The notes: generated from the sequence alone by a model not told the origin. 64,000 nt of DNA from an uncultured Planctomycetales bacterium (GCA_964583975.1 CAZOXU010000003.1:7805-71804); one strand, 5' to 3'. Positions 5,025 to 62,400 are shown, counted from the first letter of the stretch. Numbers and translations: made by a program.

Positions 5025-5034
5025 TTCTACTTCG

Positions 5035-5085
5035 CTCAAATACTTCGTATTTGAGCTTCGTAGAAACAAGCCCTCTGTTTCTACG
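5035..5085 (+). other. two tandem stem-loops after tRNA-Ala (first with UUCG-type loop)
   Basis: ctcaaatacTTCGgtatttgag and cgtagaaacaAGCCCTCtgtttctacg. No U-tract follows, so probably processing or stability elements rather than an intrinsic terminator. Confidence 0.35.
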
Positions 5086-5109
5086 TTAAGCAATGTAATT
5101 AAGAGGGCT

Positions 5110-20700: not shown

Positions 20701-20759
20701 GGGCAACCCCCCGTGGTTGCCCAATAATTAAAAGGGCAGACACAGGGGCCTGCCCCTAC
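20697..20759. repeat. REP doublet, reverse-complement arrangement of the upstream doublet
   Basis: GTAGGGGCAACCCCCCGTGGTTGCCC - spacer - GGGCAGACACAGGGGCCTGCCCCTAC. Together with 18073..18135 forms an inverted pair bracketing mutS. Confidence 0.65.
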
Positions 20760-20773
20760 GAATTGGAAACAAA

Positions 20774-22543: not shown

Positions 22544-22553
22544 ACCGCATTTA

Positions 22554-22582
22554 TTGACATGCCCCAACCAAAATTGTAATAT
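22554..22582 (+). promoter_or_regulatory. sigma-70 promoter TTGACA (22554-22559) - N17 - TAATAT (22577-22582)
   Basis: Consensus -35, 17-nt spacer, good -10, about 75 nt upstream of the small membrane-peptide operon. Confidence 0.5.
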
Positions 22583-22658
22583 TATTTCCATCAATCAAGG
22601 AATCCCCTTCCTTTAGAAACATACTATCAAACCTCCCCGAAATATCACAGGAATCCAC

Positions 22659-22847
22659 ATGATTAAATTTAATCAAAATCAAAAATTAGAATTAAGCAAA
22701 GCTATTTTTAACTTCGGAAACATTCTTGGTGGGACATTAATTGTAAATGAGGCTGTTTCAGGAAATCTAACTCTGTCCGGTTGGGTTTTTGGAGTGTTTT
22801 GTTTTGCAGCAATCTTTACAACTGCTACAATACTCATTAAAGACTGA
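22659..22847 (+). CDS. small hydrophobic membrane protein (62 aa)
   Basis: MIKFNQNQ... followed by two predicted TM helices. Confidence 0.4.
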   Translation: MIKFNQNQKLELSKAIFNFGNILGGTLIVNEAVSGNLTLSGWVFGVFCFAAIFTTATILIKD

Positions 22848-22859
22848 AAGGAGACCCTT

Positions 22860-22964
22860 ATGAAACCTGGTGTAGAATTAATTTATGGTTCTTTAACCTT
22901 CGTTGTTATGATTATGGTCTTTATCGTTATGAAATACAGCGAATCAGACACTCCCAAAAAGTAG
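22860..22964 (+). CDS. 34-aa single-TM peptide (not in ORF track)
   Basis: Strong RBS AAAGGAGA 7 nt upstream. MKPGVELIYGSLTFVVMIMVFIVMKYSESDTPKK. Starts 13 nt after the previous stop. Confidence 0.4.
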   Translation: MKPGVELIYGSLTFVVMIMVFIVMKYSESDTPKK

Positions 22965-23007
22965 GGATCGATCTGATTATGTTATAGGCAGATACCTGGT
23001 CTTGACT

Positions 23008-23367
23008 CTACGCTTCCTTCGGCCACCAGTGGCTTCTGATTTGATCTGCACAAGTTCTGGATAAATACTGACTGATTTCTTGCTTATCATCATCTTTGAT
23101 TCTACTAAATTCCATACCATAAAAATAACGTCCTTCAATTTCTTTATTCCAACGCACCTGGGCTTGAATATTTAGAACAAGATCGTCTTTTAAGTCTAAC
23201 AGCACATCAAACACATAAGCATCAGGTAATGGTTCTTTAGAGGAAATCTTAATTCCTTTTAAATTCATGTCCTCAATACAGCATTTTCGTTCCCATTCAT
23301 GTTCTCTTATTTTCATTTTTGCTTTTTCACCTATTTGCCAACGGGGGATTTGGCGAAGTTCAGTCAT
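23008..23367 (-). CDS. PilZ-domain-like protein (c-di-GMP binding family)
   Basis: 119 aa. RxxxR-like IPRWQIGEK and D/NxSxxG-like EDMNLKGIKI motifs in the right order and spacing. Confidence 0.4.
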   Translation of the reverse strand: MTELRQIPRWQIGEKAKMKIREHEWERKCCIEDMNLKGIKISSKEPLPDAYVFDVLLDLKDDLVLNIQAQVRWNKEIEGRYFYGMEFSRIKDDDKQEISQYLSRTCADQIRSHWWPKEA

Positions 23368-38400: not shown

Positions 38401-41400
38401 GATCAGCCCGTAACACTGAATCATTGTTCTTTAAAAAGAAATCGGGTTGTTCAATTAAATCAGCGAGTTCTTCAACAGCGCTTTTCTTGTGCAAATGCTT
38501 CATACCACGCTGGCGCACCAGGAAGCTAGTAATTTCACTAGCCAAGAAATCTAAATCTTTTTTACTTAATTCCAGACTATTAAGCTCAATAAAGTTACGT
38601 TGCACAGTTTCATCTCCTGGAGCGTGTAAAAATCTTTCTTTAAATCCTTTTCTTAACTTCAAAAGCTTTAATCTTAAATTCTGCAAGCGTTGATCCCACT
38701 TATAATCCGGCCACAGTTCGTACAGATTACGTAAAACTTTTCCTTTTTTCGATGAATAAAACAATAGCAGCGGCACCAAGTAATCTTCGACATTGTGATA
38801 TCCGATTTGTTCGCCCAAATCTACCAACACCGCTCGACCATCTCTTAGATTACTATCAAAGAATTTCTGAGGAATATGCAGCTCATCAAACATAATAAAG
38901 GATTGCTCAAGCATTTGCTTTGCTACCTTCCCTATCTCTGGAGCCCTCCACACCTCTGGATACTTCATAACAACATTTCCACGATGGAGATCATATGGTG
39001 CGACAAAATCTTTTGTTTTTCCCTTATTTAATTCAAAGAAAACATTCATCAGAAGAACAAACACTTTATCGGCAAAAACCGGATCGATGTATTTAGTCTT
39101 TTGAATTTCTCGAATAGGTCGTCCATCAATTAATTGTTCTAATGAGACAATATAATGAGGCCCTTGGATAGGTTGAGTGCGGACCTTTCCAAATTTACCT
39201 TTTTTCTTCTTCTCGACGTAAATAACCTTTGAGATTCTGGGAACTAAGCCACTGTGTTCCAGTCTTTGGTGGGCCTCGAGCTCTCCTGGCTCATACAATG
39301 GCAAACCACGCCTTACGTCAGTTTTAATTAAAAGTTCAAATGTATAGTTCAAACCCTGATCATTCCGTAAAGTAACTGCATAAACGTCTTTGCGCATTCC
39401 GTACCCATGTAACCCCAGACCAACATATACAGTTCCCATAATATTAGGATTCTGCAGAATACTTTCGAGACGATCTTGGAAAACACCACGACCAAACTGA
39501 AGAATATGTGTAACTAACTCTAGAGCAAGGCTAGTGTCTTTTGTAACGTCTTTTAGGTCGATATCCCTAACAATTTTGAAACTGCCTATCGGGCGGGGTT
39601 CATCTGGAGGCTGACCTTTAGACTCCTCCGCCCCGATGTAATCTGTTAAAGGAAGATCGGTAAGCAATTTATTTGGCTCATTCCAAACATTTTTATCCCA
39701 CGATGTTGCATGCAGCCTGCCATTCTGAAATGTCATAACATAAATCCTCTGCAATAATTTAGGCGCATGATTTTTTAAAAACTCGACTATAAAATAAACT
39801 TGAAAATACGGATGCCCATCAATGACTCGCACATTTCGCAGTTCGTTTGAATAGATATATTTATAAAATCGGCGTGCAAGATCATCGGATACTTTCATCA
39901 ATATCTTAAATACACAGTTTCGGCAATTACGCCACTCTTGCGAATCTTCCTCAGGTTCTAGATTATCACTCGTTGTTCTTATATCTAAATATCCGTCATC
40001 TAACAAATCCCCATCATATTCATCTGAGGTGATTGCAGCCGGGTTCGTGCTTCTTTCAACAACATCTATTGGCCGTATAATTAGGTAAGGTTTTTCTATA
40101 GAATTATTATTGAGTAAACGAACAACTAAACTTTCAATCAATTCAAGTCCTAAGAATAAGATAAAAAGTATGAACCCTCCTATAACATAGGTAGAAAGGA
40201 CAAATTGGAAAGGAAAGATCGATGGGGGAAGAGGTTCCAAATATATCCAATCGTTCAATATGCTCAATACAACAATACTTATCGCTACAGGTTCTGCCTG
40301 TATCTTTTTACCCCAAATAAGAAACAAGCTAGATATAACTCCCACAATAGCTATAGGTAAAACCATGTTGGGCCATATCCAGAAAACTCTTTCAGGGACA
40401 GTGACCAAAACGATGTTTTCACTACGAAAATCTATGAGTTTATCAGTCCCTAGAACTATGGCCCCTACTAATAACGATTGAATAGTCGCAATAATGAGGC
40501 GATGTAAAATCTTAAGATCCTTGATACTCTTTTCAACATGAAATGTGTTAAGGAATGCTTGCCACCACAAATTAACCTTCCAGGGGAATAGTTGCGGCAC
40601 GCCACTTTGCTGATAGATGTGATAAGCTAGACCGAAACGCTTACCAAGCTCCTTTTCTTCTTGAATCGTGTGATAATAAGTCTGTATGACCGCAACAAGA
40701 CATAGAGCAAATAATAATACATTAGGATATATTAAAACCATCGACCCCATCATCAACGTCTGTAAGAAATATTGTGGATGGCGCACTAGTTGATATGGTC
40801 CATAGGTGATCGGTTGACCTTTATCAATACGCATTCCTTCTTGGCGGGTTTTTGAAAACCATCGATTAAGTTTTACTAAGGCTGCTGTACTTAAAACCAT
40901 TAACGACATGCCAATAGTAAAGGTGCTCCAATTAAATCCTTGTAAAATTCCTAGACTGGAAGATTTTTCTAACGGCAAAGCCATTAAAATCCCACTCGAC
41001 ACTTTTTGGTTTCTGTCCGGCGGGCCGCGCTGTGAGGCAGAATCCCCTACCCCTGTCAAACCAGAATAACTTCTATGTGTAATTCTTCTTTTTAATACCG
41101 CTAGAATAGAGACCTTTAAAGCCCTCCATGTAATTAGGGCCATTAATCCCAAAGACCAATGTTGAATTTCGAAATTGTTGCACCTGATGATTTGCTGCAA
41201 CATTCTTCTTATTTCAGAAGAATCAGAAATGGTTGAACTTTTAAACTCTACCTTTGTTGCAAAAATTCCAAGCACTCCTGGTTTCCTTCTTAAGAGTGAC
41301 TCGGGCAGGCGTTCCGGAAAGAATTTTTTCCAAAGAGGACGGTATCCAAAAATTGCCATGTCACCTTTGAGTATATTAAAAATCTGAGGAAGCTCGTCTA

Positions 41401-44400
41401 ACCCTGTCTTACGTAAAAATCTACCTATTCGTGTAGCTTGTCCTTTTCGTGGGCCTTTTTGAATCAAGGTAATAAATTTGTATATCTTAAATTTTTTCCC
41501 CAACAAACCTACTCGTCTTTGGGTAAAGAGGATCTTCTTTTCTTCGGAAAATACGAGGATGGAAACAGCAACAACAATCATCAATGGAAGTATAAAAATA
41601 AAAGCTATGCTACCAACGATTAAATCAAACGCCCGCATATTCAAAGGTTGCAAGTGTTCTAAAAACCAACGCCTAGCTTGTTTTAATTGAGAGAATGCGA
41701 AGAAATATAAATAAAGCAAACCTGCCCCTACTCCATAAGCCAAGATATCAAACCAATCAAAAACCATTCCCATATCATTTGGTTCACGAAAAGACGTCAG
41801 AGGCATTAAAACTTCAATGAGGCTACTTATAAATAGTGAAAGCAAGGTTATTTGTACTGCAGAAAGTTTTACATCAAGAATCCAATCCCACAAATATATC
41901 ACCATAGCAAGTAAGAACGGTAAAGAAACATCTGGCAATGAACCATTGAGGATGCCATCTACTTGTGTAATTTCAAAATTACTCTGGCGAAAATTCATAC
42001 CCCAAGCAGAGAGCCACAAGAATAATCCTGACAACAAGAAAAGTTCAATGAATTTATTCAGCCAATCTTTTCTGTGCGGATGCGCATATCTTGCAATAAT
42101 TCCCCAAAGAATCACAATTCCCAAAATTGCCCAAGTGGAACCCTCAAGATCAATGACATAAAAATATTCCTGAGCCAAAGCATTGCTTAAGATAAATCCT
42201 AGCAAGAGCATTAAACTTACGATTCCTACAAGAAAAACAACCGAAACAGATCCGACTTCAGCACAGCGATCTGTCGACTGAAGCCTGGCAATTGTCCTTT
42301 TAATCCACCAAACTCTTAGAAATGCCGGAGGATGTGATGTTTGCAAAATGTTTTCTTTGAAATAATTTCCTATCGTATCGGTTACATCGTAACCTGCTTC
42401 ATAAGCATAGGTAGCTCCCCAATAATCCGCCCTTAACTCCTTAAACCAACAGACCAACAATTCAGCGAAAACGATAGGAATCAATAAAACAATAGGGATC
42501 CCTAAATACCAAGCTATCATTGAAGCTAACGGAACGAGGAAAGGAAACGGAATAAGTGCTTGAGACATGTTACGAACAATTTTAAAGAATCTGTTTTCTT
42601 GCAAAGCATTGTTTCTAAAAGCGGTTTCTCTGAGATGAGCAATTTCATGGCCAAAAACAAAAGCATGATCTTTCTCACCCCTTTGCTTCATGTCATCTTG
42701 ATCCAGGGTAATTAATGCAGGTATACAATAATAAATCTGACTTCGTTGACCATAGCCTAATACGAATGGTACTTCTTCCAGGGGTTGATACGCCTTTGCT
42801 GCAGCATGTACGTTATCAAATATTCTTAAGATTGTTTGATCCTCAATGACTTCATATGTAGATGGGTTCTTAGATTTGAATGGATAAAAGAAACATCGTG
42901 CAGCGGCATACACAGCCATGCCGACCATGATTAAATCGTCAACCACAGAAAGCAGAACTATTTGGAAGCCCATGGCGATCCCTAATGACATGGATGGGAT
43001 AAGACGAATGTCTATCTTATTTTTATAGTACCTCTGTGTAAGCTTCGTCAGCAAAAATATCACAATACCGTAGGCAAACACATAAAAAATAAAATGAGGA
43101 TGGCGTTCTTGAAATGTTTGAGAAGATTTAAAGGTAGCCTTTATTGCAGACCACCGATTTACTAAATGCGCAGGAACATTTATGAGAAATTCTTCAACTT
43201 GCGGTTTGATTTTAACGATGAGATCTTTGAAGCTATTTAATTGTTGCTGAGTAATATCAGCATTCAATTTATTAATATACTGCGCTAGAAATGTTCTTAT
43301 CGCATCGCTATGCGCGAAACCACCAAACCCAACCGAAGCTTTCCTTCTAACATCAAAGAATGGATTGTTAGGATAAATTTCTTCTGTTGGCCAATTTAAA
43401 GGAAACTTTTTAAAGAACTCATCCCAAGTTAACCGTAATAAACCAACCCACTCATATGTTTGCTCTTCCTTTACTCTAAAAACAGGGGACCCGCTATCAC
43501 CACAAAACACAACCAGCGTTGAGAAATAAACTAATTTATGATATGTTTCATCGGTATGAGCTTGATCGAGAACAAATCCTTCAGGTAATTGTTTTTCTTC
43601 TTTGGCCATGACCCGACCATAACGTCCTTCCAAAAGAGAATCAGAAGGAATATGGATCCTACCCCACACTAAATTATTGGATATTAAATCAAACTCATAC
43701 GACTTAGATCTCAAATTCTTGATGGCTAGGGCAGCATCTGAATCCGCGATTTGATAAAATAAAACGATCGGATCTTCATCTTTAACCTTAGGTGCCAAGG
43801 AAAATGTGATACCCTTTGGCATAGGAACATCGTCTTGTGTTCGTAATAAAGACAGATCTCCTTGGGCTTTATCAAACTCATTAACTACTACAAACGTATG
43901 CCAGTCGTTCTTATCCGTACTGCCACGTTTTTTCTGCTGAACTAATTTAAAATCCTTCTCACATTTAGAGCAGACAACATGATACTCCGTTAGAAAAAGA
44001 TTATCAGCTATTTGAACGGCCCTACCTATTGAATATTCTGAATCAACATCATAAAGCAGCCCGCTAATATCAGCTTGGGTAAGTGAGTCTTGAGAATTTA
44101 AGATGCTTTGTAAATCTCGCAAATGGGATTGTTTTTGTCTAAGAGTTAAAGTAATCGCAGGTGCAGCAGCACTTTCAATCTGTGCTGATCTTCCCATCAT
44201 TGGTGGATGCTGAGCAAAAGCTGGAGCTGAAGCAAAACAAAGAACGGTCAAAACCCCTAGCCAGGCTTGACGCAAAGCATTATTGGTAGTACCCTTAATT
44301 ATATGATTAAACCATCTGCAGGTTACGTCTCTAATATCAAAAAAGCCATTGCTAAACTTCCCCCGAAAGAACGTGTTCAATTGATTGACTCTTTGCAAAG

Positions 44401-47400
44401 AGAAAGTTGGGCTCAAAGATTTAAGCAGCTTCTCAAACGCATCAATGCCCGCTTTGCCAAACATCCCCTGTCTGCTAAAGAGCTCAATAAAATTATTGAA
44501 GACGCTCGGGAAGAATATCATGCTAAAGGCAGTCGTTGATACTAATGTCCTCGTTAGTTCGCTTCTAAAAGGTACGACTGCTAGAAATATCATCGCCACA
44601 CTCACCCTCAATAAATTTACTCTTGTACTCAGCGAAGATATTTTTGAAGAGATTGTATTTACCTTACGAAAACCTCGATTAGCAGAATTTATTCCTGAAT
44701 CAGATATAATTGTGCTGTTTGCGTTACTGCACCAACGTAGTTTATTTGTTAAACCGAGCAACATTGTTAACATTTGCAGAGACAAGAAAGATAATAAGTT
44801 CCTGTCTTGCGCTTTAGCGGCTAAAGCTGACGTTATCGTCAGCGGAGATAAAGATCTGCTCGTGCTTAATCCCTTCGAAGGTATTGCAATTATTTCTCCT
44901 ACAGAATTTCTGATCATGCTGTACAAGGTTTGAATCCGAACTATCGCTTTTTTATTCCATGGCGTCCAGTCTTTGAGTGGAACAATGAAGGTTCCCAGAA
45001 ATGGACCAAACAAACGCCAAAGGTAAGCTTCTTCATATAAGAAAACAACCTGGCCTGACCAATTCAAATGAACAGCTTTGGGAGGAATTGCCCCTAAATT
45101 TTGTTTAAACCGTATAGGAGAAACAAGACAGAAGAATATAAAATGCACCATATATAAGCCAAAAAATATAAAAGCAAAATGTCCTACTATCGGTAAATAA
45201 AAATTAGTGAGGAATAAAACCATTAGTGATGGCAAGGCAATTATAAGACTTGCAAATTTATTGATCATTAAAAGAGCAAAAATCCAAGTGTCGTTATATT
45301 TAGATGGATTTTGCTTAAGATATTCCCCCCATGAAAGCGATCTAGTAGGCACATTTCTCTTCTCCCAAATCATCCAATAGACTGTTAACAGCGATAATGC
45401 CATTCCCAATGTAGTAAAGCCCACCGTGCTTCCACTAGCTACCAAAGCCGCTGATCCAATAATTCCTATTGGCAGAGCTGCGAATGTAAAACCACCTTGG
45501 GTTGATTGAGGGGTTGGATCTTTTTGAAGGTTTTGGACAGTCGGTCTTTGGGTCCATTGTTTTAATTTATTCCAGACAAGTGAAGCTCTAGCCTGCCGCA
45601 AGGCACCTTCCACCCTTTCTTTTAAATGTTCCAGCAACAGTCTGACATAAAGCTCCTCAGGGTGTTGAACAGCAGCTAATTTCACAGTATTAATCAAATA
45701 ATCTTCAACCACGCTCGAAGCATCGATCTTACCGATCAGAAGATTTGCTTCATCTAAACGGCGCAAAACCTTGCCCACTAAAAGTTCTCTGTTCTCTGGA
45801 TTTTGATCTACTTCCTCTAAGCGGCGCTGGGCGACATCAAGCAATTGCTCAGCCCAAGTTAAACGATTTTCATCAGAAGATCGTATCTCCTGCCGAGCTA
45901 AATCAAGCAAGGCCCCATGTTGCAAAGCAATCCCAGCATTGGCAATTTTTACCGAGTTGATATTGGCGCTTAATAAATGACTTGGTGTAATGAAAGAAAT
46001 GTCTGCTTTTCTAGTGAAACGTGTGTAATTCGAATATGAAAAAACACTAACTGGAAGATCAAGATCGTAAACGCCTTTAGGTTCTTTCATTGCTCCATCA
46101 ACAACAATGACTAGATCTAAATCCGGAGGGAATTCACGGAAACCATAAATATAGCTTCCCAAAACATAAATACTCCACACTTTCACATTAGGACCGATAT
46201 GTTTATAAGCCATGTCTTGAGCCCATTTGACAAGCACATCAGAATTAATACTATTAAGTCTCTCCACAAAAATAGTCTTGGCCCCGTCACTAAATGGGCC
46301 GTAAATAGTTTGGTTGATCTGTTGCAAATATTCCGGGGGCATCAAACGTTTAAAACGAGGATCTAATACCATCGGTTTAAATTGCCTTTGCCGTCGAGAT
46401 ATCCAAGTTAATTCAGATAACTGCGCAAGTGTCAAGTCATAGCGCCTGGCCAACAAACTTCGTACTTTTTGTACAGAAAGTCCACTATTACCCGATGCCT
46501 GCTCCCGACCCACTAAAATGGCAGCGACACTACGCAAATCTCCTTCAGTCAGCCAGAAAATCAGTTCATCATTAATTCTTGTGGTTAGGGCTGGATTATC
46601 TAATGTTGTTCCAGCTAAACCATGAAGAAGTGAAATAGCTATTTCACCTGGTGATTTACGACGAGATCGATAAAGAAATCCTAGAACTTTATCAAGATCT
46701 CTTTCAAGAAACGATTTTGGAAAATCTAAATACGCTGGGAATGTAAGAAATTCTTTGGTGTGCGAAGAGTTGCGCAAAAATTCTTTGATCTTACGTGTGA
46801 TGCGGACAATCCAAAACCAGTGTCTAGAGAATTCAAAACGGGATGAGTTATCTTCAATCAATTTAAACTTTGCTGTTCTCCAACCAATCCAATGCGCCAA
46901 CCAACTCACAAGACTTCCAATACGATGTTGGAAAATAATGCTTAAGAAGATTGCAAGAATGAGCACGGCATCAACTAATCGTGTGGATATTCCCAGAAAA
47001 GGTGCCGACAGCCCACTGAAGAATCCACCAATACCAAGGACCGTCAAAATCTTAGAAACAACTCTATTGTGAGAATCCTGGGAATCTGCTTTTTGCAAAA
47101 ATTCACTCATACTATCATCGGTGCGGATCCATATATCTAAAGAATCAACACCTTCGGTCAGTACGAATGTTACACTTACATTATTGTGTTCTTCATTAAT
47201 ATAATAGTTGACCCATGGCGGGATGTAACTCTCTCCATTGATAAGAATCACTGGCAGACCTTTAGGATCAGAACGAGGTTGATCTTCTTTTACTACCTGC
47301 CCCACATAACTTATTTTAAGGTCTAAATGATGCCTATCTTTTCTATCTATAACAAACAGATTAAGTTCGCCGTCTTTGTCTAAATAAAACACCCCTTCAT

Positions 47401-50400
47401 TATATGGATTGATGGCACACCCAATGGTTTGCCGTTTCTCTAAATGAATCGTGGTCCTAGCTAAACCTTTAGAAGAAGCCTGTAATTTGATTGTCTTAAG
47501 ATGCGGCTTGGGACGCTGTAAAATTCTTTGCTGCAACATTCCCGATTCAAAATCAATAATAGAACCTCGTCCCCACAAATAGGACAAAGTAATTTCCCAA
47601 TAAATAAATAATAAGTTGTGTGCATAAACGATAGCCCAGACATACTTGGTACACCCCGTAAAGAAATCTACGAAGAATAAAAAGTTTAATACAAGCACAA
47701 TAGAGGCATTGGCCATTACTCCCACAAGCGCTTTAAGACCATGGACCTTCCAGGGCATACCATGAAATAAACCAACCCCGATTCGCTTCCAACCATAATC
47801 ACTGCGTCGCCCATTTTCTGGCCCCACAACAAACTGTGCTAAATGATTTGGAATAAGGGCTGCTATAAATAAAATCTGTATGGTAAAAATTTGTAGGGAA
47901 CTTGAATTTCCTAACATCATAGGTAGATTAGCGACCATGGAGGTAGCTTGTTTCCTATTGCGTCGAGTCTTCACTGAAAACCAAGCATACACAACTAAGA
48001 AAATAAGCCATCCCCAAATCCATACTTCAGCCCAATTCCTTACTAACCAATCCCATAAGTTACTTCCCCATCCAGCTGATGCCAAAACGGTTATACCAAC
48101 GATCCCCAAAGGTAGGGCTGCAAATATAAAAACATGCATTTTAAGATAATATCTCAATAAATATAGGCTTAATGCTGCAACGCTAAGCAGGATAATGCTA
48201 GTATTGCTCCAGAAATTATTGCCATCTGCTTCAAGCAATCCTACCCAGGCCTTCTCAGGATTAGGAACTTGCTTAATATCTATATATTGGCTTTTTTCTT
48301 TGGAACTCAGTGCGGCGTACTCTTGTGGGGCAATTAAATGATAAATAAATTGACCATCCTCTGTTTTAAATTCAGTAAGCTTGACGTATTTGAGTTGATC
48401 TTTTAAACCACTTTGACTCTCCATCCACTGAATAACTGCTTGTATCTGTTCAACATGCTGATTAAGAGCGTGCACAAATTTACGCGCACCCATTTTATTT
48501 AAAATCTCATGTCGTTTTTGGTTTTGGTTCTCTAGCCCAAAGACCGTAACGTACCTATCTACGCACATGGGTAAAGATAAACGTGGAGTTAAAGCTATAA
48601 ACCTAGCAGGATCCATCGACAAAGACCTGGCTGCATCCGCATTTAACGGCAGGATTATTGATATTTGGCTTGCCCTTCTTGGCTCGCTTACAATATGAAG
48701 CTTTCCTTGATATAAAAACTCCGCAACCATTCGGGCCGCTTGCAAACCAGTTCCAGCACCATAAGCAAAACCCTGAGCCATTTGTCCTCTAAAGCCATAA
48801 TTCCCTAAACTCAATTTTTCATTCTGGTCAATCCCAATGCCAGTATCTGCAACTGTAATAATTACAATTCCATCATGTTTTTGTAAGCTAATGGCAACTG
48901 TTGAATTTACTAAAGAATATTTAATGGCATTGTGAATCACTTCTCCAATTACAACGTCCTTTAAATTAAGTTCGCCATCTTTAGATTTGATAAAAATCTT
49001 CTGATCAGGAAGATCCATCTTTAAAGTGATGTTTTTGCTTTTAGCAAAGCCTCCTAGATACGTCCCTTGAACCAATTGCATAATCAATTCATTTAAATCC
49101 AAGAGGTTTTCTGTAATATCGCAAGCCGTGCTAGTGGCTGTGACTTTGGACTGATTAAAATTAGCGCCTGACACTAGTTTTTCTGGTTCTTCACTCTTTA
49201 CAAACGGCTTAAACGATAAATACTTCATAGCCCAGAATGTCAAGACAGCCGAAGCGATATGGACCCAGAAATTAATGTATAAACTTTCACCTTCAAGGAT
49301 TCGAGTGCGGAAATTGTCCTTGGTCTTACCCATCTCAACCAAATTAGCCAAGATCCACAGGAAGCTAGCAACGCTCAAACGGATCATCAGTGAACGTCGT
49401 TTTGATTGCTTATCCGTTCCATTAAGGTTTAAATCTTTGCCCTTACGCATAAACCCGAACACAGATATAAGATAGAAATATCCGGTAAGGGCTGGAATAC
49501 TTAAAATCCTTAAATACTGTGCATTAAACTGACTCCACAAGCTTCCATCAGCATCCATACGTTTAAAATAACGGAGGAAACTGTTATTAATGAGATCCCA
49601 ATTACCAACGATATCTTTGCGAATAATAACAAGAATGGTTAAGGCTATAGCAGAAACGAAAGAAATTACCGTTGGCCAATAAATAAACGGACGTGTTTTT
49701 ATCAAAGACTGCTTCTGATAGAACTGTTTATAAAATACATACCCACCTAAGACAACAGCATCCAAAGCCAACATGACAAACATCAGATTCTCATAAATAA
49801 ACGGCCTAGCAATGGTGGATATTGGGGTCACCAACCACGTTATTGTAGTTAGAATGCCCAGCAATGCCATTCGTAGAGCCCAAGGCATCTTTAAAATTTG
49901 CGGTTCTTTGTAATCTACAGATTTTTGTGCTAGAAACACACTACGAATACGGCGAACATGTGGAGCATCAATTTCCTCACGCTTAACTTCCCGATGGATC
50001 GCCTGAATATTTTCAAAACCAATCTTCTTTAGCATTCCTGGAATTCGTCTGGCAGATTGACGATTGGTGCGGCTTACCCAACGTGGCGGAAGAATATTGG
50101 TGATAATAATCCATCCGCCGGGCTTCAATTCATTAAACGCATGGCGATAAGCCGCTCTTACTCTTGACCAACGTTCAAACCAAATGTATTTAAGCCAATT
50201 AAAAAGCTCTACTACAGGCCCTTCAATAGAATGATATAGGTTTGTATTAATGAGCTGCAACCATGACAGTGGATCATTCCATCGTGGCTGTGCATTCCAA
50301 GCTACAAAATCACTGACTCGATGAAACACAACAGCATTACTGCCTGGATATTCTTCTTTAGGAAACCAACGTTTTTGGGTAGCTACATCAATACCAGTCC

Positions 50401-53400
50401 ATCCATACTGGATTTCAGTATCATCAGTACCAAATAATCCATCGTCCCATCTTTCCGTTCTATACTCAAATGCCACATGACGATGCTCGCTAGCCCCTGC
50501 AGCCTTCAAACCTCGGTAAGGCGAACCATTTTGCCCTGCTCCAACTTCCGTGACTACCCCGCCATTGATCTGAATCTTCTGTCCAATCAATTCAAACAGA
50601 GCATCTTCATGTTCATTTCCACTGACACCTGTTGAAAATTCACCTAATAGCTCCTTTGCTTGAGCCAATTCTTCTTTACTCCATCCTTGATCTAAATCTG
50701 GACGAAGTTTGAAATCTTCAATTTGTCTAATGAGATACAAATCATTAAATAAATGAATGCCAATAACAATCAGAGCAGTAAGGCTAAAAGGTTGGGTGAT
50801 TAAAATATACGGTAATAATGGCAGGGCAAAACGAAGTGCAGAGATTATGTCATTCCCGAATGCTTTTATCGGGAATCTAGTGCCTGGATCCCCGATTAAG
50901 ACTTTCGGGGATGACAATAAGTTTCCTCTCTTCTCTATATAGACATGCCAATAACCGAGGCCTAAAGCAACCAGCGCAAAGGTTGCATAGGATAAGCCCC
51001 ATGGCAATGCTGCATTTAACCCAAGGGCGATAGCTACTAACGCTGGTGCCTCTAAGAACAAGACACTTAACAATCCAATGACTGGTTGTTGAATATAAAG
51101 ATACATTAAACTTGATGGCGCTTGGGGGGCCTCTCGAACAACAGTCTGTGCCGGAAGGTGGGCTGGCGCTGGTTTTTCTGCTTTAAAAACACTTTTAATA
51201 TATTTCAACACCCACATCAACGCTGTTGCAACAGCAATTCTCTTTTGCTTCTTAAACATTCTTAAGAATATTGCTGCTGATAACATGAGTGTTCGAATCA
51301 AGGTTTTTGGCATAATGACCAGAAACTTCAACTGACCCCAGACTCCTTTAAAATCTCCACCCTCTGTTATAAATTTCACAAGGCGCTTGAATTCTCTTGG
51401 ATAAAATTCTTTGGCTAATGACCAAATTAAGGAAGGTTGATTATTAAAATCTGCTTTGGTATCAGACAATTCATCAGAAATTTGTAAAAATAACATGAAA
51501 TCGTTTCCAAATTCGACGTCCTGTACTTTGTCCTGTGGAAAACGACCTGCAAAAATATTCTCTAATTCCAAAAGACCACCAAGACGCGTTTTCGCTTTTA
51601 GAATCTCCCACATTTTCTCTACAGTTGGATATAATCCGCTTTCTCGCTCTAGAATGTACGACTCAAATAATTCTTGTGAGACTCTAAGCAAAATATCGCG
51701 TAACTTCTTTGTATCAATTTCGTCCTGCGGCATTTGCACTAAAATCTGGTTGGCCTTGTTTTCAAAATCTTCAACAATCTCTGCTCGATCTCGTTTATCA
51801 TCTTTTGCAACCAATGGAGCTTCGATTTCCTGTAATTGCCTTTGAGTTACACCCTTACTTATTAAAAGACTAGATGGAATCACTGGGAATCGACAAAAAA
51901 GCCGAGACTCAGCAAGAATACCCTTCACTTCATCCAAAGATAATTTATGTCCGAATGTGTCTAAAACTACATCTCCTGTGCGCACATATTGGGTCCAAAG
52001 AATCATCAGTAAATCAAATCTAGACTGCTTCACTATATTTAAATCAACACTCAGCATTTTTACCGCAATATATCCAAAAATACGTGTGGTTGAGTTTACC
52101 TTAATTCCATAACCGCTCCCGTCTTGGGTATCTCTTTTACCATTCATCCAGATTTCTCTAATAAGTTTGAGAAAACTAAATCGACGATCTGAATTTTTCT
52201 GTATTAACCAAAACATGTAAACAAAGATACTAATTACTAAGAAGGCTATTGCGCCCCATACCCAATACCCTGAAAGAACAACCCATGGATAAGCTAACCA
52301 TACCCCAAATACCAAAATACCAACAGTTGTAAGGAATGCTGATAAGACATGCCCACTTTGCGCATTGTTTAACTCAACCCCATCGTTTGTTGCTGTCAAA
52401 TCATGGGCAGGTTGTTCTGGGGTTTCTGGCTTCTTGAGAATTAAGATTGTTGATTCTTTTATTAAGAATTTATACCCGAATTCCTTTTGGATAATTAATA
52501 GAGCCCGCTCTAACTGAGCAATCATCCGGATGACATAAAATTTATCAACCAGTTCCTGAAGTATTTTGTGTTTCTTTATTTCTAATTCTATGACCCCATG
52601 CTCTAAATATGGTAGAAGCACTTCATAAATATCATGCTTTTCTAATTCCGCTATCGACCCAGGTGCTTTTAAGCTTCCCTTTTTACGACGATCGGAAATC
52701 CATTCTTTAATATTAGCGATTTCCTCAATATCAAATAAAAGCGAGGGAGGTTCTTTCTTTGCTTTGGCAGGTCTACCGCCAAGTAAAGTTAAATTTAATT
52801 TCAAAGACTTTGCCCGAGAAAAGATAGCAGTAGGAGTAACACCAAAATATTTCGCTAATTGTGAAGCAGTGGGTGGTTGTTCTTTCGTACTAAATAATTT
52901 ATGTGCCTTACGGAATTTAGATACGGTCAACGTTTTTCTTCCAGGGCTTAACTTTAACCGCAATTGTTTTGCTTTGTTAATTACTTGCTTACCAGTGATC
53001 TTTAAAACTGTAGCCAATTCAAAAGCCGTAGGAGCTTTTGCGGATTTCATTAGTTTCTGATAGGTCTCTCTAAATTGTTTTTTCGACACCTTTTCAGTCT
53101 CAGACCTTAGTTTTAATCGAAGAGCATCCGCACGCTTCATAACGGCTCGGTACTTCAAACCAGTAGCTTTGGCTAATTCTCTTCCCGTTGGCAACCGAGC
53201 TCCATCTATCAAACTCCTATAAATAGCGCGGAATTGTTTCTTAGGCAAAACTTTACGCATCGGAGTCAGTTTTAATTTCAAGTCTTTGCTTCGTTGGCGC
53301 ACAACGTCTGGGGACAATTTAAGCTTCCTAGCCAATTCATCTTTATTTGGTTGCTTGCCTTGGCTTGATAAGTCTTTATAGGCAGCAATAATATCCTTAT

Positions 53401-56400
53401 TACTTATGACCTGTTTTTTGTCTCTTACAGGAAGCTGCAATTCATTTAGTCTTTTATTAACAGCTTGGCGGCTAATTGATAACTTATTCATTAGATCTCT
53501 TTTTGTTGGCAATCTTTCTCCAACGCGTAACTCTTGATAGGCTGAAATAAAAACTGATTTACTGACTAGGTAACGTTTAAATAATCTCTTAAATACTAAT
53601 AAATTATGCCGTACATGTACTTCGATGGCCGCCTCTAAGGCTAATTCTCGACTTTTTGTCTTCTGGAATACTTTTTGGAAGGCACGGTTTGTGCGGGTAA
53701 CCAAATCACGTAGTTGTTTTTTATCTGCTGCGGTCAAATCTTCAACAACAAGATTTTTCGGATCGATTTTCTTGTCCTTATGCAACGTTACTAGCGCATC
53801 TGGTGGCGGCAAATCAGTAGATTGACGAATGAATCTCTCTTCCTCCCTGGCGGCTTGGAAAATAAAATCTCTCACAGTACCTGTTTTTATAGCTTTAAGT
53901 AATCGGGGCAAGAATTCAATATTCATACCCGCAACAGCTGACTCACTCTTTAAAATTTCTTTTCTCTTCGCAAGAAGCTCTTTAAGCAATTGAAGTCTAG
54001 CAAGTCTGTTTTTTGCAGCAATTCTACTAGCTAAATCTGCTTGCGCTTGCCTTGCCATCTGACGTTCATGTTCTTCTTGAAGCTTTTGTGCCTTCTGCAA
54101 TTGGCGTTCAATGCGTTTAGATTCTTTTTCAATGGCAGAATCCTTTCTGGACTTTCTTTCCTTAGAATGCTTCTGCTGTGCTCTAGCCATTCGTCTGGCT
54201 TCTTTTTCTTGTGCGTCTTGCATTTTTTGTTGTTCTTTTTCTTTGCGCTTGGCTTCTTTTTGTTGTGCCTTCAGTATTTCTTGCTGTTGTTTTGCTAACT
54301 GACGAGCTTGTTTTTCTTGGGCAAGTCGTTCATTGCGGGCAATTGAAATTACCGATTTTGTGTGCATTTGCGAAGGAATATTTTGGGTTAAATTGATCAA
54401 TAGCCTCTTACCCTCGACATCTTTAATCGGATTACCCTCTGCATCAGCAATGAAAATAGCCCAGGTTCCAACGCCATTAACAAAACGCACATCAACTATG
54501 GAATCAGGATAATCACCAACGATCACTTCTATTCCAGCGAATTTAAGTCTTCTTCCTGTTAACTTTCGGTTAGGATAAATAAAATCTTTTAGAGTTTCTC
54601 TTAGATTAGTTCTGCCAATATCCGCTACCATTTCAACCAGTTCCCCTAAAACAAATGAATCAGGGGTTGTTGCAGGCTTTGGAGCATAAACAGGGTTTAA
54701 CTCTATGGCTCTGCCTGTGCTCAATGATACGGTTGTTTTAAATAATAGGCGCTTAGGTGTGACTTTAAGAATATTTTTAACAAGCACCCGGCCATTATTT
54801 TCACCAAAAAAGGCGATCGATTCTTTGCCGCCAAAAGTCAAATACCCAGCCCCATTCAATTTCTGACCATAAAATTCCATGTGCTTGGTTACCAAATGGT
54901 ATTCCTCATCAACAACGTAATTAAGATAGCAGGAAACAAATTTAGCTTTCTTGTTATCCCAAACCAAAGCAAAGCGTTCATTTAAATCAGATGTTAATGA
55001 CCAAATTTTAATAACTAAGCCATCTCTAAAATAAATAAGGACACGTTGATTTCTATAAGCTTCCAGGCGTCCCCAAGACTTTTGTTCTTGACGATTGGGC
55101 ATTGAACCATCTACCAACATGCGACCGCCGCCAAAACGTAGATTACCAATAGGATCAAGCTGCGTCTCCAATACGACATCACCAAAGCTCAAGAGCTTCT
55201 CACGTTGCAAGCTTCCAGCATAGACATGCAGCACCTTACCTGAGTAAGCTTGCATGATCCTAAAGAACGGATAAACCTTACCGGTTTTGGTCATCTTAAT
55301 TCTAACGGGTAAACCTTCAGACATTTCAAGTTCATAATTCTCGTTGCCATGCGCTGTAAACTTCCCTAAATATTTTCCTACGATAAGCTTACCGCTGAGC
55401 GTCAAACGTCCAGTAATGATCACATGCCCAAGCGCTTTAAGTTGATGCTCGGTTGGATTAGACGGTAAATTTCCTAAAGCAATCTTCTTTAATGAATTCT
55501 TCGTAGGCGTAACCCAAGGAGAGTTCTTGTTATGTCGAAGGGCCATTGCCTTCTTGATATCTTCCTCAAGAGCTTGATATTGAGGCAGATTGCCCGATAG
55601 ATCCTCAACCTTTAGCTTCTTAGCTGCCATCCCCATCATGCCCTTACCTTCTCGCCAAACGTTTAAGTTATGTTTCAAATGCACGATAATAGCGGCCAAA
55701 TAACCCCCAACCCAGAAACCTTTCAATCGCCCTATTTTATATGCTTCTGTTGCACGAGCGGCTAAGTCTGTAAGTTGCGTTAAACATTCGTTTTGTTCTG
55801 TGGCAGATAATTCATCGACTTTAACCCAACCTCTCTCAAAAATAAGCACTTCAGAATCATGGCCCTGTATAAATTTCAAATCTCCATTAATTGTATGTGC
55901 GCGCAACTCCTCTACTACGGCCGCCATCATCCAAATAAGAATACCGAGATTGTATCGACCAACGCCAACTCTTGATGCTAAATTGTATAACCACTTCCAG
56001 CGTGACTGCAGACCAGCGACATGACGTGGGCCATAATGCATCTTTGTCTGTGTATTAAATCTCAACCCTGCAATACTCATTAAAAAGAACGTTATTGCCA
56101 TCAAAATTAGGGATAGCGCCCTATTATTAGACGTAAATGTCATTCCCGAATGCTTTTGTCGGTAATCTAGAACCTGAGTGACTGGATCCCCGATAGAAAC
56201 TTTCGGGGATGACAATAATAGGGCGCTGTCCCCTATTTTTTGAATTACTTTCCCAATCGGTTTAGGATTATGTGTCCGATAAAAATTACGCAAACGTTCT
56301 ACGGTCCACTGGTAAGGAGATTGGATGAGCTCTACATCGATATTGGTTTTGAGTAATTGCAATAAACCTGGTCCAACTATATCATTATCAAAAATCAATA

Positions 56401-59400
56401 ATACCTCTATATGTCCAGCAGCTCCTTCAACTTCTACTGCAAATCTTTTATAGCTCACTTGGGCTTGCTCATCTTGTGCGATCTTAAATTCCCTGGCGTC
56501 TTGAGGGTCATTAATTCCTTGCCTTAATAAAGCGTATCGCTGCTCTTTTCCTTCTTGATCCTTGATGACTAAATAAGGTCTAACGCCAATCGGCTTGATC
56601 TTTATGAAATCAAATAAGAATCCTTCCCAAACTCCTTCGGCATAAGCATAGAATTTCTGGTCAAAAATGGTCTTTAGAATTCCTTCCTCGGGCATATTCT
56701 TACACGTAATAACCACTAATACTTCGTGCCCCTTGTTATCACCAACACGATACATGCTTTGATTGTCTGCAGTCTCTACCATCTCCAATAAACCCCCACT
56801 ATTTTCGACAATGAACATGCCCACCTTGCTGAAATATTGGAAGTTTAATTCATCCATTAGTTGACGGAATCTTGGATATTTCTTAGCATCATCCCCCACC
56901 AAAATATCTATTAGTTCACCGAGCTTTTCAGCCAAATCAACAGAACTTTCCTTAGCTAAATCAATTAAATCATCACGCAATTTTTGGACTGTTGCCAAAT
57001 CTTCATTGACTTTACTTATTTGCTTGGAAAGTTCCTCTTGGGCAGCCAGCGATGCTTGCACGGCTTTTTCATAATCTTCTCCCGCATGGCCTTCGGCTGC
57101 CAGATGCTTGGCCTTATCTAATTTCTTATGTGCTTCTTTTTCTAATTCTTTAGCTTTGGTGAAACTTACTGAGGGGTTTTTAAACATTCGGAAATCTTTT
57201 ACCAACTTATCAACGAGTTTGACTACTTGAGCAGCTCGCTCATGGTAGGCAATGATGTCTTTGATTTCTGTGGAATCATAAGGAACCCGGCCAAAACTCA
57301 AACGGCGGGAAATGGCCTCAGGTGCTGAGCAAGCACTTAAGAAAAATGCAAAAAATAGGCTAATCAATGCCATCAGACTCCAAGGCATTGATCCAGATTG
57401 TGCTGATGCTTGGGCTTCTTTAACAGTATGGGCTTTTAATTTTTGCCACACCATGCTCGCACGAGTGAAGACCAGAGCAATTTTTAAATCTTGATAATAC
57501 GCTTCTAAGATTTCACGGATTTGTTCATCAGAATAATATCCATCTAAATATCGAATGGTTTCACTGAAATAGAGATGTTTTATAGCTGGTAGAAGCAAAG
57601 CTGAAGATGGGTCAATGCCTATGAGAAGAAGGTTTGCTTCCATCATCCGACGAGCTGATTTCGAACGCAAGGTCAAAAAATCACCTTCATCGCTTGTTGG
57701 GTTTTCTTTCGTGATACTCATAGCACTCTTCGCATCCTTAAGAAGCTCCGCTGCCGTGACCACATTATTATCAGAATGTTTGCGAATTCCCGTCATCGGC
57801 CAATCTCGCAGACCGTCTGCTTTTAAGAAAACACCAACATTAGCGATGATGGTTAAATGATGGGTTTTCTTTGCCAATGACTCAGCAGTCATAAAAAGAA
57901 TGTCCGCACGAGATGTATGCAAGGCATACTCACCATTAAAAATTCTCCTGTTTAATGGCATAATTCTTACTTTTAGGGTGTCTTGTAAATTAATCCCTTC
58001 AACAATGACTTCAATATCAAGATCTGCTGGAGATTGTTTAAACCCATAAACAAAACTTCCTACCAAAATAATACTAACGATACGGCCTTGGCGATTGGTA
58101 TGTTTATACAGCTCTTGGGTCAACATTTCTCTTAAAGCTTCTACATCAATCATTTCAACGCGTTTAACAAATTCAGCAATTTGTTGATTGTCCATTCTTC
58201 CATAAATCGTACGTTGTCTGATTTGCTCTGAATAAGAGGGCGACGGTCCAGCTTCTGCAAATTCTTCTAATAAGCGAACATATTCTAATTGGGTCAGTTT
58301 ACTAAAGGCCGGAGATTTAACCCATTTCATTAATGAACGAATTTCGTCACGGCGTTTCTTGTTAACGTTTTTATCATCAGATTTTACAAGTTGAACGTAA
58401 TAATCTTGCACCATAGGCACATAAGATTGGGCTCCTTCCCCTTGTGATGCTCCGGCGATGATAACCGCCCAGGCACGCCAATTATTCATTCGTAACCAAG
58501 CTATTAATTCTTTCTTGATTTGACCATTGATTGATTCATCTTCAACAAAGCTATAGCTTAAGCGGAAAAGGTCTTGCAACCTTGCATCGGTAGCTAAAAA
58601 TCCGAATCGACGGGCACGTTGCAATTTTTTAAGGAGTTTAGGAATCTCTTTAACTTTGAAAGCTTGTAGATTTTCAGGATATTTTGCTCCACCCAAGAAT
58701 AATCTTGTTTCAGATGATAAATGACGCCAATTATCAAGTAGTTGTTTGAGCTTGTGCACTATTCCAGTTATTTGGTAAATAGTAATTATGACAACCGTCA
58801 GTATCCCAATGTCAATTAATGCATAAAGGACACCTTTCATTCCTTCTGCCTTTTGCAAGATAAGGAAAAATGAACTTTCAAGTAGTGTGGCTGCTAGAAA
58901 CAATAGTACTGCTGGGACAGAAATCATGGCGCGAACCTTAGGTAAACTAAAATACGGTCGTTCTTCGCGAAGCAGAATGTCGATTTGCTCATCAGGATTA
59001 ACTAGTACTACCGTCACCTTATTTTTTGGTTCCAGATATAGCTGAAATAGGTTTGGAATATGTTCCCCTTTCACCTGAGCAACGGGAACATAATCACCTG
59101 TTGTCCCCTGATTACTTGGCACAGTAAAATCAATTCTTCGTCCTTCATGGGGAATGACAAATGGCGTCTCAGTATCAAATTTAATACCCTCACCTAAATC
59201 GCGATATTCCTGCATCACACATAATTGTCCTGCTTGATTAAAATAGACAATTACGTCATTTTTGTGGTTAATCAAACGAATTCTCAGGGTTTCTTTCCTA
59301 TTGAGATTAATGCGATAAATACTCGCTGGAAATTCCTGAACGCGCACCTGAAGGGCATCGAAAGTTAATGCAGCACTTGATTTTCTTCTAGGATGTCCTG

Positions 59401-62400
59401 GTTCATATGGAACTCGATAAGTAATAACACCTTCTTTATTAATGATTTCAGTAGGTATTTGGGAAGCTGCAAATCTAATCCATGTACCTCTTCGGGGAGA
59501 AAATTCTGTGACAGCCACATCTTGAGGATCAATGGACAAGCGTTGTTCTTCATAACGCATCGAGAGTTTTTGTTGATACCAATCTCCTAAGAAATTAATT
59601 AAATCACCTTCGTTACTGTAGACAGCTATCAAAACTTCAAAGACAATCATGCCAAGATTTAAGGCTGCCAAAAACTCTGCTAATCGAGGCGCAATAACAC
59701 CTTTCGATAGAACATCAATAATAATAGCAGCCAATATATTACCCATAAACCCGGCTAGGGCCCGTATGCCCTTAGTTTCCCACGGCATGCCGTAGAACAA
59801 CCCTTTTAAAATGCGCCCAACGCCATAATCACGTCTGCGTCCTTGATCGGGTCCGGCAATCAAGTGGCCAAGTTCGTGAGGAATAATAGCTGGGCTCAAA
59901 ACAATTCGTGCAATCCAATTCCCCCACCAACCACGACCTATATGCTCAAATAAACTGGCTGCTAGCGATGGTGTCGGTGCCAAAGAAGTATTAGAAGCAG
60001 CGGCAGACCGAGTTTCAGGTTTTTTTAGAATTTTCACCTCAAGTTGGGTTACTTCAAACTCATACCCATGTCTTTGCTGAATAATCCCTAGAGCCTTCTG
60101 TAATTGGGGATAATTACGAATTATAAGGAATTGATCTCGCAACATATTAAGTATGCTGCTTTTTAACGTTTCTACCGGCATTCTTTCTACGTACATCAAA
60201 AGAAGCTCAATATCATGTTCTTCTAATTCCAGTAGTGAACCTTCAACCTTCAAGCTGCCCTTATTCCTACGATAATCAATCCAATATTCAATATCAGGAA
60301 CTTCTGACGCTTCAAATAAGAGTGAAGCTGTACTGCTTATAGGTTCTTTAGCAACAACAGTGGTGCTTAGAAGAGAATCTGTTGCATGGGGCTTAATCTC
60401 AGGAACAAGGATTTTAGTTACATATTGTTTCATCTTCAGCCTAGTTTTTCTTTTGGGTATAACAATTGGCTTAGGCTGCTGCTTAGGCAGAACCACAGAT
60501 TCTTGACCTTTTAATCGCAAAACTAATCCCAGAACCTTGCTACGAACGCGTACAGCTTTAATTTTCATTCGTAATTTATCAGCGAGTTGACGGGCTGAAG
60601 GGGGAACTCCTTTGTTTTGTATCATCAAACGCTTATAGGCCATGCCAAAAGACTTTCGCGAAACTTCTTTTCTAGAAAGGCGTAATTTCAAGCCTAATAA
60701 ATTGGCTCTGCGACGAACCCTGACTTCAGTGATCTTAAGTTCTTCGCCCATGGCTTTAGGCGTAGGGTATCTATTCTTTTGGGACTTTAACCGTGTATAA
60801 ACCTCTTTATATTTCTCGTCAGAGACATGATTTCTAGCTGGACGAAGTCTTATTCCTAACGCTTTATAGCGTTGCATAAAGGATTCATATGATAGGACAA
60901 GCGCTCTGGCCATCTGTCGTCCGGTTGGAAGCTGTCCTTTGTGTGTTTTCTTAAATATCCTGTATGCACGTTTTATTTCCTTGTCTGAGACTGTCTTTTT
61001 TAAAGGTTTGAGTTTTAAATTCAATGCTCTGCTTTTCTTACCTACCCATTCTTGAGACATTGTAAGGATCTTCGCCAGCTGAATAGAAGTAGGCGCTCTG
61101 CCCTTATGTCGTCGTTTGAATTCACGGTAAGCAGCTCTGAAATCTTTTGCTTTAACTGGAGACCGTCTTTTTCCACCTAACTTTAATTTGAGTTCTTTGG
61201 CTTTGCGGGATGCTGCCTTGTGTGTCATGCCAACCGAATCAGCCAGTTGCTTTAAAGTGGGGATGCTCTTACCCTTCGACAATGCACGATAAGAGGTTAG
61301 AAATTCTTTCTTGGTAACTCTATGTTTGAAAGCTAAATAATTGTATTTGGCATGAACTTGAATAGCTGCTTCAAGGGCTTGTTGGCGATTATTGGTCTTT
61401 TGGAAAACTTTCTGGAAGGCACAATTGGTTCGCTGAACTATTTTAAGTAATTGTTTTCGATTAGTAAATGTCAGTGCTTGGATTTGCAACGACTTTGGAT
61501 TAATTTTGCGGCCTTGATGCAATTTAATCAACGCATCAGGGGGCGGCAGATTCGTTCTTCGACGAATAAACGTCTCTTCTGTCCTGGCTTCTTGAAGCAG
61601 AAACTCTCTTAATTTACCCGCTGCCATGGCTTCTTTCAGCTGAGGCAAACGTAAGGGATTTAAACCAAGCGCAACTGCTTGACTATCTCTATCTACATTA
61701 AACTGAATAATTTCTGCACCGCCAGTCTCATCTAGATCTTCAACATCATCATTCATTCGAGAAGCTCCACGCAAAACAGTGTCCAGCAATGAGGCATCTT
61801 GATTAGAATCTTCCTCTTCTTGACCTTTTAAAAAGTATTCTTTTAATTTTCGTAATGCTCGATCTTCAAGCTGCTGGATCCGTGATCGTCGAATTTCTGG
61901 ATAAAATCTCTCGCTGATTTGTTTAAAAGTTAATGGATGGGTTCTAAAATACCTTAAGAAAATAATATTAGCTTCCCTCTCACTTAAAATCTGAAAAAGC
62001 CTTCTCTTCCAGGCACTATTCAAGTCTTCTAAATCACTTCGCACAAAATCATCCTTACTTCGAGGGTCTGCCACACGATCTTCAAAGCCCCTATGATCGC
62101 CTTTATTATCCATCCAGCCTTTATCTGAAAATAATTTCACCCTTTGGCGTTCTTTACGAGACTTAGTAATGACTTCATTAAATTCCTTACGAATCCACCA
62201 TTCTGCATAGGCTGCAAAACCACTGTTTTTCTTTAACATCTCTAGGTCGCTAGCTTTTTGGGAGGCTCGAAACAGTCCTAGATTACCTGCTAGAATCAAT
62301 TCCATGCTCGAGATTCCAACACGATAAGCACTAGCAAAATATCCATATTTATTAGCGATATAAATGACATACGGAAGGTTGGCATTAACCAAACGAGTAA

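Follow-up and report, generated by a model that had tools for sequence, protein, structure and literature searches.

The window analysed here is the whole of a 64,000-nucleotide stretch of DNA (GCA_964583975.1, CAZOXU010000003.1:7805-71804) deposited under the name of an uncultured Planctomycetales bacterium. Its left 23 kb carry ordinary chromosomal genes, followed by a giant open reading frame (ORF) on the minus strand (23411..63970), which runs through 40,560 nt in a single frame and encodes at least 13,519 amino acids (aa). Stop codons are absent from the ten in-frame codons at 63971..64000, up to the window edge, so that this length is a lower bound and the listed ATG could be an internal one. 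Pfam domains are found along the entire ORF, all in the one frame, and a hydropathy scan marks about 55 non-overlapping hydrophobic 19-mers as candidate transmembrane (TM) helices (Kyte-Doolittle hydropathy of at least 1.6, a crude method and not DeepTMHMM). Within this ORF, two pairs of enzyme-like motifs are probably the remains of an ancient collinear segmental repeat of about 1,450 aa, present in two copies. An initial annotation of the stretch had placed duplicated nucleotidyltransferase (NTase) folds, a GHKL ATPase and paired M50-like membrane modules between 46000 and 58100. The elements are real and the motifs lie where it put them. However, the intact HExxH block (59534..60004) falls outside that range, the second NTase module extends down to 45527, and the context had gone unstated, namely one giant Omnitrophota ORF in which repeated domains are the norm.

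The repeat was delimited by cutting the protein into 250-aa pieces, each compared with the whole protein by BLASTP. A first block pairs aa 763-1359 (copy A, 59894..61684, minus strand) with aa 3342-3900 (copy B, 52271..53947, minus strand) at 35% identity over 616 columns (E = 5e-106) and comprises a helical head, an array of helix-turn-helix (HTH)-like repeats and a linker. The second, a membrane block, pairs aa 1355-1483 with aa 5365-5497 (E = 2e-18), and the third pairs the NTase segments, aa 1732-2198 with aa 5719-6156, on the same strand and in the same frame (E = 2e-27). Aligned globally, aa 1330-2200 and aa 5340-6160 share 29% identity (871 aa, 936 columns). Paralogy had been proposed for the two segments bearing GS..YG..DLD motifs and for the two membrane blocks, one with HELGH and the other with NHLAQ, with pairwise alignment named as the check. 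Both alignments are significant and both pairings hold, but the similarity is wider than had been noted, as the first block also matches.

The order of parts is the same in each copy. The helical head is followed by five or six HTH-like repeats of about 54 aa, a linker that terminates in ILKKPET and a helical membrane module of about 155 aa with three to four helices. Then come a beta-rich domain, a pair of TM helices, an NTase module of about 420 aa and further TM helices. The HTH array of copy A gives sub-threshold Pfam matches to Sigma70_r3 and HTH families, and that of copy B weak matches to GntR, HTH_11 and HTH_24. The beta-rich domain of copy 1 (aa 1480-1675, 58946..59533, minus strand) is flanked by the HExxH module and by a two-TM hairpin at aa ~1678-1739, and a relaxed Pfam scan returns nothing for it beyond a sub-threshold Cu-oxidase match. 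A beta-rich domain precedes an NTase module in P0001 too, a 4,388-aa protein with three NTase modules. In the second copy, some 1,430 aa found in copy B only (aa 3901-5329, 47984..52270, minus strand) separate the linker from the membrane module.

The membrane module of copy 1 (aa 1323-1479, 59534..60004, minus strand) carries HELGH at 59864..59878 (aa 1365-1369) in a TM helix and keeps the family-conserved N92, N119 and E126. Its counterpart in copy 2 (aa 5330-5489, 47504..47983, minus strand) is degenerate, with NHLAQ at 47834..47848 replacing HELGH. In an alignment of ten family members, both HExxH histidines are present in nine, window copy 2 being the sole exception; this copy deviates at none of the eight invariant positions (two Asn, Gly, Pro, Ala) and keeps a nearly invariant Glu. 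Since HExxH is lost in this one member of ten, loss of catalytic residues is a fair reading of copy 2, which is probably a dead scaffold as judged from its residues. The family is further marked by a TPSLxAN motif, by the position of HExxH at the close of the first long helix, by a basic GPxxGRRxDYG loop, by an MPW motif and by two invariant Asn. The nearly invariant Glu stands seven residues past the second Asn (N-x6-[E/D], N119...E126), without Pro or DG. The second motif of M50 peptidases, NxxPxxxxDG, is not found in the family alignment, which does not allow the module to be filed under M50. Neither copy matches Pfam M50 or M50B (no family at E <= 1), profile searches of the PDB are likewise negative, and Foldseek, PADLOC and NCBIfam give no match for these modules. 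The earlier M50-like label is borne out by the HExxH in a TM helix of copy 1 and is unproven as a family assignment. Unlike the M50 or site-2 proteases (S2P) RseP, SpoIVFB and MjS2P, the window module measures just ~155 aa and has no PDZ or CBS domain. It is most aptly regarded as an uncharacterised intramembrane HExxH family, perhaps with distant kinship to the S2P core.

The NTase module of copy 1 (aa 1768-2188, 57407..58669, minus strand) consists of a helical N-terminal part, a Pol-beta-type core and a C-terminal helical bundle. Its motif, GSFVYGFKQSPADLD, lies at 58016..58060 (aa 1971-1985), and a third Asp is found in RADILF. Copy 2 (aa 5751-6148, 45527..46720, minus strand) has GSYIYGFREFPPDLD at 46115..46159 (aa 5938-5952) and its third Asp in KADISF. 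The acidic triads are intact in both copies at the level of aligned residues, and G[S]...DxD plus the third Asp is shared by both window copies and holds in 10 of the 12 family segments. A hidden Markov model (HMM) of the family, built from 12 sequences with both window copies included, scores the two copies at 1e-134 to 6e-148. Evidence for the fold was sought in several ways. The two-copy and family profiles match GLD-2 (E = 0.002) and Pla1 (E = 0.03), aligned on the NTase motif. A confident AlphaFold model, based on the alignment of 12 sequences, has an alpha/beta core with long helices after it (predicted local distance difference test 82.3, predicted template modelling score 0.82). Among its top nine Foldseek matches in the PDB, eight are kanamycin/ANT(4') nucleotidyltransferases and one is HalB of the Hailong system (probability 0.72-0.99, E = 6e-3 to 4e-2); AadA, AAD(9) and MntA appear lower down the list. 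Together with the motif, these matches support a Pol-beta-type NTase fold for the modelled module. Pfam does not lend such support. Copy 1 yields sub-threshold matches (MTPAP-like, E = 1.2e-3; Polbeta, E = 0.14), NTP_transf_2, the model proposed beforehand as a check, comes out at E = 0.15, far below threshold, and copy 2 has no Pfam NTase match. The NTase modules of P0001 likewise have only faint Pfam matches, and PADLOC and NCBIfam return nothing for the window modules. Like ANT(4') and AadA, the modelled module has two domains, an NTase core and a C-terminal helical domain, with G[S]-x9-DxD and a third Asp. Unlike them, it shares only 10-14% identity, has an additional N-terminal helical region of ~150 aa and sits between TM helices of a giant protein.

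The block inserted into copy 2 contains TM bundles, an HATPase_c domain and one copy of a module named here for its CVDRY motif. HATPase_c (PF02518, aa 5007-5110, minus strand) follows a six-helix TM bundle and has the N, G1 and G2 boxes. Its score of 48.1 bits clears the cut-off of 26.4, so that the GHKL call made earlier is borne out. NCBIfam histidine-kinase models widen the match to aa ~4950-5110 (48641..49123, minus strand). Nearly all of the NCBIfam sensor-kinase models cover the catalytic (CA) half only; one VanS alignment begins earlier. The domain resembles sensor histidine kinases in its boxes and its above-threshold Pfam score. It differs from them in belonging to a giant polypeptide and in having no recognisable partner domain, as neither HisKA, that is, the dimerization and histidine phosphotransfer (DHp) domain, nor a Response_reg receiver is matched by Pfam or NCBIfam anywhere in the giant ORF. 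Upstream of Asn5014 in the N-box, His4904 stands at the canonical distance of 110 aa, in a context (FWVHIAS) unlike an H-box. Elsewhere in the insert, a stretch resembling S-adenosylmethionine-type methyltransferases was read by eye at aa 4415-4700, a reading that a relaxed Pfam scan does not support. The CVDRY module spans ~145 aa (CVDRY...QIQAVIQW...QVPDPxNAWVG) and occurs three times on the minus strand of the ORF: copy A in the insert (aa 5120-5264, 48179..48613), copy B at aa 10925-11069 (30761..31198) and copy C at aa 12963-13104 (24656..25093). The three share 49-53% mutual identity. Pfam offers nothing significant for the module, scans for its pattern came up empty in GTDB genomes and in JGI metagenomes, and it is a lineage-specific module. 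Its copies come after HATPase_c, an NTP_transferase domain and a TM domain, respectively.

The two module families are rare outside the window. An exhaustive HMMER search of 1.84 billion cluster representatives with the two-copy profile (E <= 1e-3) matched 21 proteins, nearly all of 1,100-6,037 aa. Eight have the membrane module, 13 the NTase module and none both. One of the matched proteins comes from an Elusimicrobiota metagenome-assembled genome (MAG). Relatives with readable context are chromosomal, single, very long multi-enzyme proteins, in which the companion domains include enoyl-CoA hydratase, an AceK kinase with MTS and MutS_V, and a Glu/Leu/Phe/Val (ELFV) dehydrogenase. A scan of JGI metagenomes with the two-copy alignment found nothing. 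Three further features were seen among the matched proteins. A short motif, R[SA]ELR, recurs close to module borders in the large relatives (P0001, P0003, P0007 and others), 15 of the 21 end in a C-terminal tail of small residues (...AA, ...GA, ...SA), and several begin with a signal peptide followed by AHxPxxSxWAERR.

The repeat is old. Its copies are 26-35% identical at the protein level, and blastn of copy against copy finds no similarity at the DNA level, for which reason a recent duplication was rejected. Five successive sub-blocks keep the same order, which argues for one segmental duplication, after which the copies diverged for long and one of them took up an insertion. Several observations weigh against this picture and against the functions attached to it. 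Both module families give star-like neighbour-joining trees, and the window copies are sisters in neither. Copy 1 and copy 2 are 26-28% identical, which does not exceed the identity to homologues in other organisms (30-36%), and the membrane module of copy 1 shares up to 36% identity with foreign members, more than the 26% it shares with copy 2. Because the copies are not sisters, duplication within the gene is read from collinearity only. The support for the NTase modules falls below conventional significance in each single search (Pfam 0.15; Foldseek best 6e-3), and with no E-value below 1e-3 the fold is called supported and enzymatic activity is presumed. The true 5' end of the giant gene may lie outside the window; same-locus genes in relatives reach 39,654 aa, so that what the window shows, 13,519 aa, may be no more than the C-terminal part of a much longer gene. 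Finally, topology is not reliably predicted, and hence neither is the side of the membrane on which each module lies.

The main rival holds that each copy came from a different donor, through shuffling of modules between giant genes or through their independent acquisition. The lack of sisterhood in both families and the copy-to-copy identities, no higher than those to homologues elsewhere, speak for it. It is also favoured by the occurrence of HExxH and NTase modules in separate proteins and by the hypervariable giant genes found at this locus among relatives (see below). Independent acquisition nevertheless sits poorly with five successive sub-blocks that are collinear in both copies, and with an HTH and linker block that is still 35% identical at E = 5e-106. 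Star-like trees with long branches and the lost catalytic constraint in HExxH copy 2 also mean that non-sisterhood weighs little. Shuffling is considered unlikely, though it deserves serious attention, and segmental duplication is preferred. The proposal of the initial annotation, duplication followed by loss of activity in one copy, is consistent with the paralogy and with copy 2 as the only family member to have lost HExxH, and is weakened by the trees.

Taken as a whole, the region seems likely to be an internal stretch of a membrane-threaded, multi-enzyme giant gene of the 'archaeovorin' or multi-enzyme class. Omnitrophota commonly have giant ORFs, which are poorly conserved; the prototype, that of Velamenicoccus archaeovorus LiM, reaches 39,678 aa (PMC10066038). 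The 'archaeovorins' combine glycosyl transferases, methyltransferases, peptidases and HATPase_c with many TM helices, and have pilZ next downstream (West-Roberts et al. 2023, 10.1101/2023.11.21.568195). A catalogue of 916 proteins includes a 'multi-enzyme' class 1; in it, 65% of Pfam-positive giant proteins repeat a domain, the repeats being old and not recent, and 80% of giant-protein sequence clusters are singletons (Nielsen & Lui 2026, 10.64898/2026.06.07.730766). The window gene resembles these giants in its Omnitrophota origin, its length above 10,000 aa, its dozens of TM helices and the pilZ gene directly downstream. It also shares with them the tiling of unrelated enzyme domains (HATPase_c, methyltransferases, peptidases, sugar transferase, phosphatase), the repetition of domains within the protein and the poor conservation among relatives. 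Giants of this type also have a divergent SecA_DEAD domain, with a type II secretion locus upstream. Within the 13,519 aa in view here there is no SecA_DEAD, HEAT, GT1/GT5 or dockerin; the start of the protein and the sequence upstream of the gene fall beyond the window. The window gene differs further in that it has a sigma-70-like segment, with Pfam matches to sigma-70 regions 1.2 and 4 (aa 489-711, 61838..62506, minus strand; region 4 at E = 1e-9, region 1.2 borderline), and HTH arrays; neither 'sigma' nor 'nucleotidyltransferase' occurs as a word in the text of the two preprints.

The gene type and its internal repeats are thus already described, and the finding leaves knowledge of the class unchanged. 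The giants of Omnitrophota rank with the longest proteins known, and what they do is essentially obscure. What the window offers is a clean, well-delimited example of how such a protein is built, in which an old repeat is split by an insertion and one catalytic motif has decayed. It also defines two rare and unnamed module families, the ~155-aa HExxH membrane module and the ~420-aa kanamycin-NTase-like module, which have no above-threshold Pfam match and are almost confined to very long multi-enzyme proteins of several lineages. These modules are tractable handles that could help to show whether giant proteins are processed and on what their enzyme domains act.

A working model can be proposed. 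With its many TM helices the polypeptide would be anchored in the cytoplasmic membrane, and the two NTase modules are predicted to be active in ATP- or NTP-dependent nucleotidyl transfer onto some acceptor. HExxH module 1 would be a zinc-dependent intramembrane hydrolase, which might cleave the giant polypeptide itself or a neighbouring segment, and module 2 a catalytically dead copy retained as a membrane scaffold or structural pseudo-enzyme. HATPase_c would bind ATP without a recognisable partner domain.

A more specific scheme, in which the super-module is a self-processing, membrane-tethered transcription-factor cassette working through regulated intramembrane proteolysis in cis, is held to be improbable. 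A signal, perhaps relayed by the HATPase_c block, would cause the HExxH module to cut the giant polypeptide, in the manner of a site-2 protease set within its own substrate, and so free the sigma-70-like and HTH segment onto DNA, a sequence of steps that is just as doubtful, and by the same slender chance the second cassette would be a non-cleaving, permanently tethered version. The scheme draws on the sigma-70-like region (aa 489-711) and HTH-like repeats, which stand directly N-terminal to the intact HExxH module, on the other protease-like modules of the ORF (M48 and trypsin-like) and on the literature, which suggests that giant proteins are self-processed by their C39 and S8 domains. Against this, there is no evidence of cleavage and M50 membership is unestablished. 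The second super-module has HTH repeats yet a dead HExxH, neither HisKA nor a receiver domain was found, and family modules elsewhere adjoin unrelated enzymes such as the ELFV dehydrogenase. If the scheme were true, Omnitrophota giant proteins would be bacterial polyproteins with built-in regulated proteolysis. The preferred reading remains the more modest one of an anciently duplicated super-module within a multi-enzyme giant.

The setting of the gene is conserved. Immediately downstream lies pilZ (23008..23367, minus strand; Pfam PilZ, E = 1.1e-10), which is next to the giant gene likewise in three relatives (L084, L085 and L086). The window MutS is 100% identical to one NCBI-derived protein and 78%, 67% and 60% identical to NCBI proteins named Candidatus Omnitrophica or Omnitrophota; placed by this MutS similarity, the organism is an Omnitrophota bacterium. 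The order mutS, mutL, pilZ and then an opposite-strand giant gene is kept in relatives whose MutS is 73-87% identical. In GCA_044225175.1 the giant gene at this locus encodes 39,654 aa, and a Logan contig has one of 17,116 aa; those on a JGI and an ENA contig encode at least 18,875 and at least 2,262 aa, respectively. In L001, a more distant MAG, the locus is occupied by an ORF with Pkinase and AAA_33 domains whose product measures at least 2,717 aa. Taken over the window (18184..23367), L084, L085, L086 and L001, the gene order holds across 58-87% MutS identity. By tblastn and HMM searches, no similarity was found between the window giant and the 3' 7-10 kb of the giant genes in L001, L084, L085 and L086, and mutual similarity among these 3' 7-10 kb of the relatives' genes is likewise undetectable. 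As far as these sequence comparisons go, the giant-gene locus is fixed and its content hypervariable between relatives.

It is very improbable that the long ORF is an artefact of assembly or annotation, or a set of separate anti-phage or toxin-antitoxin genes (NTase/HEPN-like, ATPase and protease), as the Foldseek matches of the NTase model to HalB (Hailong defence) and MntA and a weak PADLOC match over HATPase_c might suggest. The frame runs through 13,519 codons with no stop, at least four relatives have giant genes at this same place, PADLOC finds no match at the level of a system, and housekeeping genes make up the flank; the unbroken frame and the synteny effectively refute such a reading. 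A defence system was rejected, PADLOC and NCBIfam having returned no match for either the NTase or the HExxH modules.

Further domains are distributed along the giant ORF, all on the minus strand. Pfam recognises a peptidase M48 with HEIAH (aa 7098-7221, ~42310..42679), a bacterial sugar transferase (Bac_transf, aa 7446-7620), PEMT/ICMT (aa 7687-7780), an MTS methyltransferase (aa 8541-8666), NTP_transferase (aa 10662-10776) and His_Phos_1 (aa 13269-13439). A trypsin-like module of chymotrypsin fold with GDSGSP (aa 6652-6833, ~43472..44017) corresponds to a sub-threshold Trypsin_2 match (E = 7e-5). The M48 and trypsin-like modules may bear on self-processing of the giant protein. Kinase-like (aa 8120-8480) and P-loop (aa 10440-10620) stretches, both read by eye, were rejected as unsupported in the relaxed Pfam scan. 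The sigma-70-like segment lies directly upstream of the first HTH-repeat array, and a region 2-like sequence was seen by eye. Other internal repeats are a tandem pair of ~123 aa near the N-terminus (aa 63-405, 62756..63782), two HNH-associated-repeat-like units (aa 11059-11389, 29804..30796) and a dispersed pair of ~70 aa (aa 9132-9203, 36362..36577, and aa 11528-11598, 29177..29389).

The genes on the left flank were named from ORF translations and from the Pfam labels of same-locus genes in relatives. They comprise bioF, birA, a cysteine desulfurase gene, two tRNA genes, rlmN, accA and an L,D-transpeptidase gene, together with a comM-like gene, a gene for a 990-aa coiled-coil protein, mutS and mutL. 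A small GIY-YIG-like ORF, read by eye, lies at 4864..5361 on the plus strand between tRNA-Ala and tRNA-Leu. A 153-aa ORF (10892..11353, plus strand) beside the comM-like gene has, also by eye, a HUH-type motif like that of the IS200/REP-associated tyrosine transposases.

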